Origin: an uncultured Acidobacteriota bacterium
Lineage (GTDB): Bacteria > Acidobacteriota > Vicinamibacteria > Fen-336
Length of the DNA stretch: 64,000 nt
Direction of reading: 5' to 3'
Assembly: GCA_963720545.1 (NCBI GenBank)
Contig: OY970399.1
Coordinates: 2,502,908 to 2,566,907 of the forward strand
The notes beneath the pieces are model-generated. The model saw only the letters and a program-made list of their open reading frames with translations, was not told the DNA's origin and made no database searches. Each line of letters starts with the position of its first letter. The first letter of the stretch is position 1. Positions 5,661 through 12,594 of this stretch are shown here, piece by piece. Position numbers and translations under genes: made by a program.

Positions 5661-6746
5661 TCAGACGCCTCGGGTTGAGGTCGGATCGGGAATCACGCGA
5701 ACCCCGAGCCACAGGTGATGGATCATTGCCACGAGCACGACAGCCCACGCCGCCAAGGCGGCGTAGACGGTGACCTGCGGAATCACCATGAGAAATTCCA
5801 GGCCGGTTGCCTGGACGAGCCTCATGGTGCAGACCGTGTACATGCCAAGCGGAAACACCATGGCCCAATACTGAGGGTCGTAGCTCAGGGGAAAACGGCG
5901 GACCACGTGCCGCCACACGCCGAGGATGAGGAGCAGCGGGATCCACCAGGTGGCGGTGGCCCAGAAGAAGAGCGTAAATCCGGCGATGAACGGCCGGACC
6001 ATCACCAGGAACGGCCAGAGTTCCGCCTGGATGAGGAGCGATGCTCCTGACAGTGTGGTGATGGCAACGGCGCCCATGTTGATCCAGTACGGCGGCGTCA
6101 TCTGGTCCACAGTCAACGGCACGAACGTGAAGCGGTAGAAGATCAGCGTGATGATCGTCAGGTAGAGCATGGCGCCCAGCAGGTACATGCACAGGGCAAT
6201 GAACAGTACGACCTCCCGCCCGTCCTCAATGCCCGGCGCGAGCAGGGTGCCGAGGACCGACACGCTTTGGGTCGCCACGATGCCGAGGAGCCACGCGCCG
6301 TTGATGCCCGTCTCGAGCGTCGGCTTCGACTCTCGGATGACCGTCGCCGTGAAGAACGCGTACATCACGATCACCCACAGCACGATGCCGCCGACCCACA
6401 GCGCGTGGGCCGCGCCGGTGCGGCCAGTCAGGATCGCGATCTCGCTGCCCAGCACGCACGTCCCGGCGACCACGGTGAAGAACCCCGGGCCGCGCGCGTG
6501 GCTGTTCAGGTCGTCGAGCACCAGCGGGAAATACACCACGAGCCGAATCACGAACATCACCGTCAACACCGCATAGGCGCCGATGTTGATGGCGAGTAGC
6601 GCCAACGCGATGCGCGGCATCTGCAGGACGTGGGCGGCAATCGAGACAATCCCCGTGGCCATGACGACGGCGAAATAGCCGGGGAAGAGGCCCGCGACCG
6701 CTCCAGCCAGCCTGCGTCCGATGGTGTCGGCCGGCGATCCCGTCAT
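5661..6746 (-). CDS. TDT family (TehA / C4-dicarboxylate / SLAC1-like) anion transporter
   Basis: 361 aa, ~10 TM helices; sequence [41 protein letters not shown]... is typical of the tellurite-resistance/dicarboxylate transporter family. Confidence 0.8.
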
Positions 6747-6970
6747 TTTTCCAAGCGGAACAGGTACCAGAGCAGCCCGGCGTTGAGGCCAACGCAGACG
6801 AGGCTGCCGACCGCGGCCGGCACGACCGTGGCGGTGTCGCTACCGAGATACGCATTCATGGTGGCCGTCAGCAGCCACAACTGCAGGATGACGATCAACA
6901 CCACGAAGGCGAGCATGGCGTTGACGATCGTCATCCGCTGGGCACGGACCATCCGGACACGCCGTATCAT
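6743..6970 (-). CDS. small membrane protein (75 aa, two predicted TM helices)
   Basis: Hydrophobic 75-aa ORF with ATGA overlaps at both ends (Rieske upstream, TehA downstream). Confidence 0.4.
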
Positions 6971-7539
6971 GTCGTCGATTCCTCCACGCCTGTCGCGTAC
7001 ACGGAACCGTCACGCACCTCCACGAGGATCCGCGGCAGTGCCCGCTGGGGCGGACCGGCAACGGGCCGGCCCGTCTCGAGGTCGAACCAGCCGTTATGGC
7101 ACGGGCAGTGAAGGCGTCCCACTTCGACGGCGGGCACAACCGGGCACAACAGATGCGTGCACTGCTGGTCGTAGGCGACGAAGCGGGCCGCGCCGGTGCG
7201 CACGAGTAATCGCGGCGTGCTGCCTTCAGGGTAGGTGAATGTTCTGGCGCCACCAATCGGCAACTCGTCGACGCGGGCGATCGGAACGCCGGGCGCCAGC
7301 AGCGCCGGCCGGCTGAAGGCGCTCTTCAGCACGATCCAAAACTGTCCGACGACCAGCGCCGCACTTGTGAGCACGATGAACTTGACGAGTTCTCGACGCG
7401 ACACGTACTCGTCCTGGGCCCAGTCGATGGGAAAGTCACGGCGCCACTTCGGCTGCTCGCCGATCGGGCGGCCGTCCGGAGGCGTGGTTCCGTGATCGAG
7501 ATCTCGAGGACCCTCCAAGCCGCGTTGATTCTGAATCAT
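6967..7539 (-). CDS. Rieske [2Fe-2S] domain protein with N-terminal TAT-like anchor
   Basis: Rieske boxes CTHLLCPV and CPCHNGWFD; N-terminus carries SRRELVKF (TAT-like) followed by a hydrophobic helix. Confidence 0.8.
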
Positions 7540-8180
7540 GGGTCACCCCGATCCGGCCCCGGCTCGAAGACATCGTCCAGCATCTCGTGGCCAATCGTCG
7601 GCTCGTGCATCGCCGCCGTCACGTCCACGATCTCTACGGCGGAGTCGCGCGGGACCATGATGTTGACCTTGGTGCGAATCGTCTGCCTCCCGAATTGAAA
7701 CGTGTTGACCGGCTTGGCGTGTGGCCGCAGCCGCGCCATCTCCGCGCGCGTGCCAAACGCCAGCGCCTGGCTCGGACAGGCCGACGCGCACCACGGCTTC
7801 AGCCCGACCGACGTCCGGTCGTAGCACATGTCGCACTTCATCATCAGGTTCATCTCGGTCTGCATCTTCGGGACGCCGAAGGGGCAGGCCAGGACGCAGT
7901 TGTTGCACGCGATGCAGCGCGGCTTCCTGGCCGTCTGCACGATGCCGTCCTCGGTCCGCTTGATGGCGTCGGCCGGACAGACCTCCGCGCAGGTCGGCGA
8001 GTCGCAGTGCAGGCACACCACCGGCACCGTCTGCGTCGAGTGCGCGCGATCCACGTAGTCGAGCTGAATCATCGACTGCCCCTTGTGAGTGTCGCATTCA
8101 GTGCAGGCCTGGATGCAGGCCTGGCAGCCAATGCACCGGCCTGGGTCGATGAAGAACTCGAGAGCATCTGGAACAGGCAT
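7536..8180 (-). CDS. 4Fe-4S ferredoxin-type iron-sulfur subunit (NrfC/DmsB-like, four Cys clusters)
   Basis: [14 protein letters not shown]..., [14 protein letters not shown]..., [12 protein letters not shown]..., CDMCYDR...C motifs; the start is placed at [16 protein letters not shown]; ATGA overlap with the Rieske gene. Confidence 0.8.
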
Positions 8181-8194
8181 GGGTCGGGACCTGG

Positions 8195-10489: not shown

Positions 10490-10526
10490 GGTCTGCGTGC
10501 TCCTGTGAAACTGCAGCGGGGGTGAG

Positions 10527-11714
10527 CTACGGGAAGAAATTGTCGGCGTCTTCAGCACCGAGCGGCCCCTGTCCCCGCGCCGGATTGGCATGGACGGGCA
10601 TGGGCAGCGGACGACCGTGTGCCAGCGGCGCGCCGCCGCGCTTGCCACGCCACAAGGCGCCCTGCGCCATGGCCAGCGATGCCCGCCGGCAGCGCGGGCA
10701 GATCCACTGGTAGTGGCCATCGTCACCGGGGATGTCGTAGTGAAACCCCAACTGGCGCTCCACCTCGATCAGATCCTCGATATGCATGCGCGAACTGAAG
10801 GCATGACCGCAGCGGCGGCAATGCGCCAGTTCCTGGGTCCGGCCGATGTCCTTGTAGAAGCTGACGCCGAGCTGCGCCGGCCGCTGAAAGATGTGAAAGA
10901 ACTTCCCGAACGGCAGCCAGAGAAACGTGCCGATCACCGTGATCGCATGCAGAATCGCGATGAACGTGTAGGCGTAGCCCTTCATCCACGTGTAGCTCGC
11001 GGTGAGCATCAGTCCCGTGAGGCTGACGGCGAACAGCAGGATCAGCGGCATGAAGTCTTCGGCAAACCGCTGGACTGCGGCCGCGCCCTCTTCGCGCATG
11101 CGCCGCCGCATGGCCAGCATCACGCCGGCAATCACCAGGAACGACGACCACACCAGGCCGTGGAACATGATAAACGCCATCACCGAGTCGTGCGGAAAGC
11201 GGAAGGCCGGGAAGCCGAACGCGACCGCCTCGTACAGTGAAAGGTCGCCAGGCACCGGCCGGAAGTGCAGCCACCCGAAGACGAGAGGAAAGGTGATCGC
11301 CACGGCGATGAGGCATCCCCACATGATGAGCATGTGCGTGAACCCGCGCAGTCGGCCGCGCGCAAAGATGAAGCGATTGGCAAGCAGGTCGGTGCCGACG
11401 CGGCGAATCCACGCCCCTGCGTTCCGTCGTCGCCAGCCTCGCCGGAAGAACGCCTGCCAGCCACGCCGCCAGTACATGGCCGTGGGCGGGCGCTGCAGCC
11501 ACATCGCATAGCGATACGTCAGGCCGAACGTGGCGAACAATACGGAGAACGTGTAGCCGACGAGGGCGGCGTCAAAATGGGCGAGGGTGCGCGAGCCGAC
11601 GAGGATGAGGACCGAGAGCCCCAGCGTGGCGCCAAGGCCCCAGCCGATTGGCCCGATCACCTGCCGAAGCCTCGATGTCCGGAAGGGCGCCGTCGTCAAA
11701 GACACAGGTATCAC
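10527..11714 (-). CDS. polytopic cytochrome-b-type membrane subunit (NarI/DsrM-like) with C-terminal Cys4 zinc-ribbon-like domain
   Basis: GAGGGGG RBS, then GTG at ~11714 overlapping the trHb stop (GTGA). Multiple TM helices with conserved His; C-terminal CRRCGHAF...(25)...CPRCRR. Confidence 0.55.
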
Positions 11715-12124
11715 CCCCTCTCCGTCGATCGCACAGTACCACCGAGGCTCGAAATATGGTGCCGCATCATCGCGGCAATCCGCAACGCACGCGCCTTGGC
11801 GTCTTCGGCGCACGGACCGCCGAAGAGGGTGTCTACGTTCTTGTGAAACAATTCGAGCCACCGCCCAAACTCCCGGTCGCCGAGAGCAACTCGGCTGGCG
11901 AGTTCGCGATGGACGGCCAGCGGATTGCCACGGAATCCGGCGACGCCGAACAGCACACCCTCCCAGAAGTCGTACATCTTCGGCAGATGCCGCACCCAGT
12001 CCGTGTGGGCGACGTCATCGAAGATGGGACCCAAGAGGTCGTCGCCACGCACGCGCGCGTAGAAATCGTTGACGAGGCGTTCGATGTCAGCGCGAGAGGC
12101 AATGTCTGTCATCGCTGAAGTCAT
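11711..12124 (-). CDS. truncated (2/2) hemoglobin
   Basis: [48 protein letters not shown]...FRGNPLAVH matches trHb family signatures; the start ATG overlaps the Rrf2 stop as ATGA. Confidence 0.7.
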
Positions 12125-12594
12125 GACGCCGCCTTGCGCATGTCGGCTCGTGTCGAGCGCGGTTGGAGCGCCACCACTTGCGTAATCCACCGTGGTTCAG
12201 CGATCAGATCGGCCAGCGTGGCGCGATCGAGCACCGCGAGAAACGCGCCAAAGGCCTCCCTGAGCACTCCTTTCAGTCCGCATGCGCGCGACAGGGGACA
12301 GGTGTTCGTGTCTCGTTCGAAGCACTCCACCAACGTCATGGTGCCTTCGGTACGTCGGACGACCTCGCCGATCCGGATGCGGTCTGGCGGTTTGGCGAGC
12401 GCAAACCCGCCATCGCGGCCGCGGGTTGTGTCGAGGTAGCCGAGGTGCTGGAGCTCGTTGACGACCTTCACCACGTGATGACGTGAGATGCCAAACGCCG
12501 TGGCGGCGTCGGTCGTGAGACATCGCGAATCAGAATGTACGGCCGCATAGATGAGCACGCGGAGGCCGTAGTCGGTAAAGGAAGTAAGTTGCAT
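12121..12594 (-). CDS. Rrf2 family transcriptional regulator (Fe-S type, NsrR/IscR-like)
   Basis: MQLTSFTDYGLRVLIYAAVH... Rrf2 HTH; three clustered Cys (ECFERDTNTCPLSRAC) typical of cluster-binding Rrf2 proteins. Confidence 0.8.
   Translation of the reverse strand: MQLTSFTDYGLRVLIYAAVHSDSRCLTTDAATAFGISRHHVVKVVNELQHLGYLDTTRGRDGGFALAKPPDRIRIGEVVRRTEGTMTLVECFERDTNTCPLSRACGLKGVLREAFGAFLAVLDRATLADLIAEPRWITQVVALQPRSTRADMRKAAS

Follow-up and report, generated by a model that had tools for sequence, protein, structure and literature searches.

A conserved gene core joining a Nas-type molybdoenzyme to a Rieske protein and a NarI-like membrane subunit: a candidate quinol-linked nitrate reductase

Introduction

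How might a molybdoenzyme without an export signal work together with a Rieske protein that carries one, and what would such a complex reduce? The question is raised by an eight-gene cluster in a 64,000-nucleotide stretch of DNA from an uncultured Acidobacteriota bacterium (contig OY970399.1), hereafter called the window. All eight open reading frames (ORFs) are on the minus strand between positions 5661 and 12594 and read from 12594 to 5661. They encode an Rrf2-family regulator, a truncated haemoglobin (trHb), a membrane protein resembling NarI, QmoC and TcuB, a catalytic subunit of the MopB superfamily (MopB), a four-cluster ferredoxin (FeS), a Rieske [2Fe-2S] protein, a small DUF6755 membrane protein and a SLAC1/TehA anion channel. 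An earlier note on this DNA had described the cluster as co-oriented and had named most of these families; both descriptions are borne out, the latter by Pfam and NCBIfam scans. Comparing the cluster across genomes, we suggest, with slightly more confidence than doubt, that five of its genes encode a quinol-linked, cytoplasm-facing, membrane-bound nitrate reductase of undescribed architecture, which in this genome would be derepressed by nitric oxide (NO).

Results

A five-gene core is conserved across phyla

In a scan of one genome per species, at least 544 species encode the membrane subunit. The loci of the best 80 of these species-level matches were fetched, and 73 are long enough for the order of the core to be judged. 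In all 73, the genes for the membrane protein, MopB, FeS, Rieske and DUF6755 follow one another in this order on one strand. Such an arrangement, recurring in every complete locus and in many phyla, is much more than chance could produce. Represented among the best 80 loci are Acidobacteriota, Gemmatimonadota, Chloroflexota (including the isolate Herpetosiphon sp. NSE202), Myxococcota and Planctomycetota, and also Rhodothermales, Verrucomicrobiota, Ignavibacteria, Armatimonadota and others; the species that match, at least 544, span about ten phyla. The median protein identity to the window is 68% for the membrane protein, 76% for MopB, 74% for FeS, 57% for Rieske and 59% for DUF6755. By gene content alone, the set that defines a complex iron-sulfur molybdoenzyme, namely a MopB protein with an FS0 cluster, a four-cluster protein and a membrane anchor, is adjacent in all 73 loci.

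The regulator and trHb genes, in contrast to the core, precede it only in the window and in two related loci (L001 and L003), and occur in rearranged form in a planctomycete locus (L081). The conserved unit is therefore the five-gene core plus an anion transporter, and the regulator and trHb are a lineage-specific addition to it.

The catalytic subunit is closest to Nas enzymes

MopB (8195–10489) is interrupted in the window as sequenced and measures 763 residues once three single-base insertions, described below, are removed. The protein matches three Pfam domains. Its best-scoring NCBIfam model is NasC, at 769 bits against a cut-off of 1100, followed at a distance of about 200 bits by the Fdh-alpha model (562 bits). 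The narG model TIGR01580 gives 53.7 bits against a cut-off of 1084, so the protein is not of the NarG type. The residues expected to bind FS0 are present as C48-x2-C51-x3-C55 and C83. At the position of the molybdenum ligand MopB reads DYNGRLC177MVSAG; two NasC equivalogs (P0133 and P0134, at 1114 and 1171 bits both above the curated cut-off) have DYNGR(F/Y)CMS(A/S)AA, and formate dehydrogenase-type relatives carry DHCARLCH, as also seen in the alignment to the FdhF of HDCR. Neither a twin-arginine translocation (Tat) nor a Sec signal is found in the sequence, in line with the cytoplasmic type that the earlier note had assigned to the enzyme.

We searched for neighbours of MopB with its C-terminal 441 residues against 1.8 billion representatives. 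The nearest full-length neighbours, at the level of 50% clusters, are 44–48% identical over this region and include the NasC equivalogs; among full-length hits of no assigned affiliation, the highest identity is 56% (P0125). The orthologues encoded with the core are 66–96% identical to one another across phyla and, judged by their sequences, are a distinct group beside Nas. Members of the MopB cluster are labelled 'assimilatory nitrate reductase catalytic subunit' in IMG. The best solved relatives are FdhF-type formate dehydrogenases (452 bits), a ranking that reflects what has been solved, since the PDB holds no Nas structure.

Ferredoxin, Rieske and DUF6755 subunits

FeS (7536–8180, 214 residues) is a ferredoxin of the DmsB/HybA/FdnH type, with 16 cysteines in four cluster motifs. 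It matches Fer4_11 at 76.9 bits, and its top NCBIfam models are HybA and DmsB at about 101 bits. With 37.6 bits on the NarH model TIGR01660, for which the cut-off is 524, it is not NarH-type. The protein has neither a signal peptide nor a predicted transmembrane helix.

The Rieske protein (6967–7539, 190 residues) matches PF00355 at 43 bits, with actinobacterial QcrA and AioB as its closest models in NCBIfam. A Tat-type motif, SRRELVKF, lies ahead of a single transmembrane helix. Across 74 orthologues the motif is kept as (S/A)RR(D/E)(F/L)xKF with a conserved arginine pair. The same orthologues retain the CTHLxC and CPCH boxes, with the two disulfide cysteines that are also found in the Rieske proteins of bc1, b6f and Aio, and a 45-residue N-terminal cytoplasmic segment (PDGRP..QPxWRxDFPID). 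The earlier note's account of a Tat-anchored Rieske protein is supported: its twin-arginine motif is conserved, and MopB and FeS lack Tat signals. DUF6755 (6743–6970; PF20540, 89.6 bits) is a 75-residue membrane protein with two transmembrane helices and a conserved sequence motif, encoded directly after Rieske in all 73 complete loci.

The membrane subunit is a putative di-haem cytochrome b

The gene for the membrane subunit (10527–11714) starts with GTG. Its product has six predicted hydrophobic segments and resembles several families of quinone-linked cytochromes: TcuB (E = 1e-7) and QmoC (E = 1e-6), both over residues 123–282, and Nitrate_red_gam (E = 1.3e-3). The score on the NarI family PF02665 is 18.9 bits against a cut-off of 22.9. 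In a Pfam scan at E ≤ 0.01, Nitrate_red_gam was the sole family returned and no bc-type cytochrome b was detected. Searches of the PDB by sequence and by profile gave no match.

No variation is seen at H46, H127, H185, H256, C299, C302, C339 or C342, and almost none at H274. In an hhalign comparison with E. coli NarI, H256 and H274 align with the haem ligands H187 and H205 (E = 0.003, at a probability of just 10.6%), and in a looser alignment H127 falls on NarI H56. The depths of H127, H185, H256 and H274 in the predicted helices are topologically consistent with one another. The likeness to NarI proposed in the earlier note has moderate support, the NarI, QmoC and TcuB matches being weak, and the subunit is a putative di-haem b protein.

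The protein also has a cytoplasmic Cys4 domain and a conserved C-terminal tail. Within residues 299–395, an invariant CxxC...CxxC pair is followed by a highly conserved tail rich in proline and glycine. The cysteine region could be a rubredoxin-like or zinc site, and the tail could be a docking peptide.

Relatives of the membrane subunit fall into more than 6,300 clusters at 90% identity, named 'hypothetical' or 'MFS transporter'. NCBI records (P0053, P0102, L002 and others) also use the latter name for it. The label looks like a propagated misannotation, because the window protein and four relatives (P0064, P0100, P0102 and P0003) give no Pfam match to the major facilitator superfamily (MFS).

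Transporters and genomic neighbourhood

The last gene of the cluster (5661–6746) encodes a 361-residue anion channel of the SLAC1/TehA (TDT) family (PF03595, 164.7 bits over residues 22–342, cut-off 27.9; TIGR00816, 93 bits, below its cut-off of 237). A SLAC1 gene directly follows DUF6755 in 42 of the 73 loci (37 from an automated count, plus five in which the genes overlap). In 17 others, its slot is taken by a NarK-family nitrate/nitrite transporter of the MFS (best model TIGR00886, 242 bits). Further loci have a SLAC1 or NarK-like gene within 9 kb.

A RIC/YtfE di-iron repair gene (238 bits, above the cut-off) lies close to the core in 11 loci. Other recurring neighbours encode hemerythrin-domain proteins, Crp/Fnr regulators, ClC channels, cytochromes P450 and an ArsR-like regulator with a cysteine-rich tail. 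The P450 gene, also present in L003, L011 and L041, immediately precedes the membrane-subunit gene in several Myxococcota loci, among them L016 and L023 (7734–8900). In L010, L015, L037, L041 and L043, the genes for the ArsR/HTH_20-like regulator and RIC/YtfE stand together immediately upstream of the core; as an alternative sensor of redox state or NO, this regulator may serve the same module. One recurrent neighbour cluster, a 394-residue membrane protein (cluster 36), matches no Pfam or NCBIfam family.

Among the 80 loci there is no recurring gene for an assimilatory nitrite reductase (NirBD or NirA), a glutamine synthetase or an NtcA/NasR-type regulator, and none for a soluble NAD(P)H- or ferredoxin-dependent donor. 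The chaperone NarJ has no match among the eight operon proteins in the Pfam and NCBIfam scans; it is also absent from the annotated recurrent neighbour clusters of the 80 loci, in which no NarJ-directed search was made.

An NsrR-type operator at the regulator promoter

The regulator (12121–12594, 157 residues) matches the Rrf2 family PF02082 at 114 bits. Its best NCBIfam model is NsrR (131 bits, cut-off 182), with RirA almost as good at 124 bits. Cys91, Cys99 and Cys105, all in the C-terminal half, and Asp8 can be read from the translation. Members of its cluster are labelled 'nitric oxide-sensitive transcriptional repressor' in IMG.

At the promoter of the regulator gene itself we find an operator of the 11-1-11 inverted-repeat type AAGATGCATTT. 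The palindrome, AAGTTGCATTTTACATGCAACTT (12586–12608, minus strand), has perfect arms, overlaps the start codon of the regulator and occurs once in the window, with 0 expected in 100 shuffles. It matches the NsrR site of E. coli ytfE, AAGATGCATTTAAAATGCATCTT, at 19 of 23 positions (PMC5320621). The palindrome upstream of the regulator is kept in L001 and L003 and is looser in L081. NsrR-type control, which the earlier note had suggested, is thereby backed by a DNA site, and the repressor would be expected to respond to NO. In E. coli, tehA has a predicted NsrR site and is implicated as an NsrR target, with conflicting data from reporter fusions (PMC5320621).

A sigma-70-like promoter candidate (TTGCCA, 17-nucleotide spacer, TAAAGT; 12605–12633, minus strand) agrees with the consensus at 9 of 12 positions. 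It is merely suggestive, since sites of this quality in the region do not exceed the shuffled expectation. Its −10 element would lie over the palindrome, about 11 nucleotides upstream of the regulator ATG, which implies a near-leaderless mRNA.

The second gene (11711–12124) encodes a 137-residue trHb of group III. Bac_globin matches at 25.6 bits, and the best solved relative is the group III trHb 2IG3, C. jejuni Ctb (E = 4e-13, residues 11–129); matches to group I and II globins are no better than E = 3e-4.

Layout of the operon

Six four-nucleotide overlaps and one 38-bp junction had been reported for the cluster. The actual figures are five overlaps and two gaps. ATGA joins the regulator to trHb, FeS to Rieske, Rieske to DUF6755 and DUF6755 to SLAC1, and GTGA joins trHb to the membrane subunit. 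A 37-nucleotide gap containing AGGAG separates the membrane subunit from MopB, and 14 nucleotides separate MopB from FeS. No internal terminators above chance level were found within the operon, and a hairpin with 16-nucleotide arms (88% complementary) and a 2-nucleotide loop lies about 20 nucleotides past the SLAC1 stop codon (5607–5640, strand unassigned). The hairpin is a possible transcript end, a role assigned to it by position because it has no T-tract. A single transcript is plausible given the absence of internal terminators and the hairpin after the last gene, and the eight genes may form one translationally coupled unit.

Upstream of the operon, a cupin-domain gene (12662–13009, plus strand) diverges from the regulator promoter and is syntenic in L001, L003 and L084. 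Synteny between the window and its relatives stops at about 13010.

The reading frame of MopB is broken in the window

MopB had earlier been read as one intact gene, which is not the case. Between about 9653 and 9542 its frame runs through f1, f2, f0 and f1, with an in-frame TGA at 9643–9641, and the lesions split it into ORFs of 282 and 421 residues. Alignment to the two closest relatives, L003 (92.7% nucleotide identity) and the JGI contig L086 (95.3%), together with three-frame translation, places single-base insertions at about 9653, 9640 and 9542; no other frame-changing difference from these two sequences occurs over the approximately 7 kb of the operon. With the three insertions deleted, the protein is as long as most of the listed members of its 90% cluster. 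We also considered reading the TGA as selenocysteine and rejected this, as the codon sits in a frame-shifted stretch, is not found in relatives and is far from the molybdenum ligand Cys177.

These changes may be real. The operon would then be a decaying remnant in the source genome, with MopB a pseudogene and the cluster non-functional there, a scenario that we regard as possible but rather doubtful. It is favoured by the accumulation of three insertions and an in-frame TGA in one gene, and by an independent assembly (protein P0327, on a 28.5-kb contig; NCBI/ENA), which has the first insertion (...WIDHAVH...) and not the second; this indicates either a recurrent basecalling error or a real polymorphism at the site. 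Next to the operon, a SulP-family anion transporter gene (13063–14100, plus strand) has at least three frame changes, insertions as well as deletions, and appears truncated. On the downstream side, 1 kb away, a stretch of lower GC content (about 0.60) holds a shortened IS3-type transposase (3872–4573, minus strand). Two repaired 763-residue versions of MopB were looked up by exact match, and neither is on record. Against decay, the three lesions are confined to 112 nucleotides and sum to +3, so that the frame is restored, and the remaining 7 kb of the operon is free of lesions, with proteins 85–99% identical to those of relatives. The window lies within a single contig of 4,089,372 bp, typical of long-read assembly. 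In L001, a sister long-read contig (4.39 Mb, ENA) and the closest long relative, the same gene is broken at another position (11226–13534, a 631-residue call followed by a 400-nucleotide gap). Moreover, a homopolymer at 4572, exactly where the IS3 ORF begins, differs in length by one G between the window and L083 (a Logan contig, 99.94% identical), a second assembly of the same population. On balance we lean, with some conviction, towards the three extra bases being an artefact of long-read assembly rather than a real lesion. Short Logan contigs from this population stop short of the frameshift zone.

As a possible sign of methylation-related basecalling error, a GATC motif fits two of the three insertion sites, but the window has 426 GATC sites in all, and none is at the inferred indels inspected in the SulP-like gene. 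Either that gene is a pseudogene or the assembly is at fault there as well. Elsewhere in the window, a cluster for branched-chain amino-acid biosynthesis, recognised by eye from N-terminal sequences as leuB, probable leuD and leuC, ilvC, ilvN, ilvB and ilvD (28344–38125, minus strand) looks intact, indicating that frameshifts are not evenly distributed.

Discussion

A model for the core complex

Based on these observations, we propose the following scheme. While its Fe-S cluster is intact, the NsrR-like repressor would occupy the operator over the −10 region and the start codon; damage to the cluster by NO would release transcription. In the membrane, the NarI-like subunit with two b haems would oxidise quinol at the outer face and move the electrons inward, with H185 and H256 as the proposed ligands of the distal haem and H127 and H274 as those of the proximal one. 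From there electrons would pass through the four [4Fe-4S] clusters of the ferredoxin to FS0 of MopB and on to the molybdenum bis(pyranopterin guanine dinucleotide) (Mo-bisPGD) cofactor ligated by Cys177, where nitrate would be converted to nitrite in the cytoplasm. The result would be a redox loop of the Nar kind with a catalytic subunit of the Nas type. A cytoplasmic active site is suggested by the lack of Tat and Sec signals in MopB and FeS and by the inner-membrane anion transporter in the cluster. SLAC1/TehA, or NarK in other lineages, would bring nitrate in, let nitrite out, or both. The trHb, as expected of its family, would handle NO and O2 in the cytoplasm; here trHb, and elsewhere RIC and hemerythrin proteins, may deal with NO that arises from nitrite. 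DUF6755 and the Rieske protein, which is Tat-exported and of the disulfide type, would be fixed extra subunits at the outer face, most likely concerned with quinol oxidation or serving as an electron entry point: the Rieske centre could be part of a Qo-like quinol site or could admit electrons from the periplasm.

A more specific version of this scheme is that the Rieske protein and the NarI-fold di-haem cytochrome form a joint quinol-oxidising site at the outer face that feeds the cytoplasmic Nas-type enzyme, making the core a third kind of energy-conserving nitrate reductase and, at the same time, a novel type of Rieske/cytochrome b machine. We offer this version tentatively and consider it possible, though doubtful.

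Several points weigh against a quinol-linked nitrate reductase. A NarI-type quinol oxidase needs no Rieske protein, which leaves two invariant subunits unexplained, and none of the loci encodes a periplasmic acceptor or donor for the Rieske centre. Members of the Nas clade known to date are all assimilatory and soluble, and MopB itself scores below the curated NasC equivalog cut-off. Likewise, the regulator is below the NsrR equivalog cut-off, with RirA close behind, and the catalytic gene is disrupted in the window as sequenced.

Alternative functions and orientations

The features shared with Nas also fit an assimilatory enzyme that draws on the quinone pool through the membrane module and passes nitrite to a reductase encoded elsewhere. 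MopB lies next to the NasC equivalogs and bears an assimilatory annotation in IMG, many of the carriers are aerobic soil heterotrophs, and in Paracoccus a Rieske-type protein, NasG, serves NasC (PMC3475470). We nevertheless think this unlikely. None of the genes expected around an assimilatory pathway, from nitrite reductase to glutamine synthetase and NtcA/NasR-type regulators, recurs in the loci; with NsrR, RIC, hemerythrin and Crp/Fnr, regulation and surroundings are of an NO-stress and anaerobic kind, and neither NasG nor NirD resembles a Tat-exported Rieske protein of the disulfide type. A change of substrate is a little less probable again. The same architecture might reduce chlorate, selenate, tellurite or sulfite, or might oxidise formate and deliver the electrons to the quinone pool, as could be argued from the FdhF-type structural relatives, the missed NasC cut-off and the link of TDT/TehA relatives to tellurite and sulfite, which the earlier note had raised in proposing a module for N-oxides or S-oxyanions. 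Yet MopB has the Cys-Met of Nas and Nap rather than the Cys/Sec-His of formate dehydrogenases, and its preference for NasC over Fdh-alpha is large. Markers of stress by NO and nitrite recur beside the core, and selenium, tellurium or sulfur genes do not. As NarK replaces SLAC1 in 17 loci and MopB has a Nas-type active-site motif, the N-oxide half of that proposal is favoured and the S-oxyanion half is not.

It is also conceivable that MopB and FeS face the periplasm. They would fold in the cytoplasm and cross the membrane as hitch-hikers on the Rieske Tat signal, in the way that AioA travels with AioB; the uncleaved signal would anchor the complex and the di-haem subunit would send electrons from quinol outward. 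A pairing of MopB and Rieske proteins is the pattern of Aio and Idr, and the Rieske protein here, the single subunit bearing an export signal, combines a conserved Tat consensus with bc1/Aio-type disulfide cysteines and has AioB among its NCBIfam matches. We regard this as the least probable of the alternatives. Nearly every locus includes an inner-membrane transporter of the nitrate/nitrite type, for which a periplasmic enzyme would have no need; the nearest relatives of MopB are all cytoplasmic Nas enzymes; and the Cys4 domain and tail of the membrane subunit, like the N-terminal segment of the Rieske protein, resemble docking sites for cytoplasmic partners. Outward electron flow through a NarI-type subunit would, in addition, dissipate the proton-motive force.

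Comparison with known systems

The proposed logic of the nitrate reductase is that of E. coli-type NarGHI: a cytoplasm-facing Mo-bisPGD subunit, a four-cluster ferredoxin and a NarI-like di-haem anchor, with NarK alongside. The parts differ. NarG has an Asp ligand and about 1,240 residues, whereas the catalytic subunit here belongs to the Nas clade, with a Cys ligand and 763 residues. The operon has no NarJ, the anchor has six helices and a Cys4 domain, and the invariant Tat-Rieske and DUF6755 subunits have no Nar counterpart. With NasC, NasA and NarB, MopB shares the FS0 motif, the DYNGR-x-CM-x-SA active site and the lack of an export signal, and a Rieske-type partner recalls the NasC-NasG-NasB system of Paracoccus. 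Unlike those enzymes, it apparently works with a DmsB-type ferredoxin and a membrane haem-b subunit instead of NAD(P)H-, ferredoxin- or flavodoxin-dependent partners; its Rieske protein is membrane-anchored, with a Tat motif, and of the disulfide type, and no nitrite reductase is linked.

Among described nitrate reductase systems, the haloarchaeal Nar operon is the one that likewise encodes a Rieske protein (narB) and a cytochrome b (narC) with its MopB and FeS subunits. The coupling proposed for it is Q-cycle-like, and NarC is given simply as 'cytochrome b' in the review (PMC2483277). That system has a NarG/NarH-type enzyme, in contrast to the Nas-type enzyme without a signal and the NarI-like cytochrome described here. 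The haloarchaeal enzyme is exported to the outside, and its NarC is a bc1-type cytochrome b.

The Tat signal-anchor, the CTHLxC and CPCH boxes and both disulfide cysteines of our Rieske protein are typical of the high-potential, outer-face type of bc1, b6f and AioAB, which reacts with quinol or with a MopB partner. In contrast to bc1 and b6f, no bc-type cytochrome b was detected, and no c-type cytochrome or other acceptor is encoded; Aio, for its part, lacks a ferredoxin subunit and a membrane cytochrome. The membrane subunit is most like QmoC, TcuB, HdrE and DsrM, whose NarI-fold haem-b domains join cytoplasmic Fe-S redox proteins to the quinone pool. It differs from them in scores far under the family cut-offs, in two additional N-terminal helices, in its set of partners and in having a CxxC...CxxC domain instead of HdrC-like or ferredoxin-like domains.

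The view that the architecture is distinct from Nar, Nap, Nas, Fdh, Aio and Psr is supported. We found no described counterpart in the searchable full-text literature, which misses most subscription journals, and this agrees with the earlier note. In reviews of the MopB superfamily, Nas enzymes are listed as assimilatory enzymes of the cytoplasm, and the present arrangement is absent (PMC10100899). As far as can be determined, the core is a new architectural variant of nitrate-reducing molybdoenzyme complexes that is widespread in soil and sediment phyla.

Implications

Enzyme reviews (PMC10100899) and automatic annotation alike regard Nas-type catalytic subunits as soluble and assimilatory. 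If the core is a quinol-linked nitrate reductase, it would be a fourth architecture beside Nar, Nap and Nas, the nitrate-reducing potential of soil and sediment metagenomes would be read differently, and functions would be provided for DUF6755 and for a membrane protein labelled 'MFS transporter'. If, further, the Rieske protein and the cytochrome share a quinol site, much of what is counted as 'assimilatory nasA/narB' in soil Acidobacteriota, Gemmatimonadota, Chloroflexota and Myxococcota would actually be respiratory or dissimilatory and linked to NO. The matches include a cultured carrier, Herpetosiphon sp. NSE202, and the hypothesis is hence directly testable. In the locus of this isolate (L059), the core is immediately preceded by a gene (8063–8839) for a protein with one DUF1858 and two DUF2249 domains and has a NarK-like MFS gene downstream.

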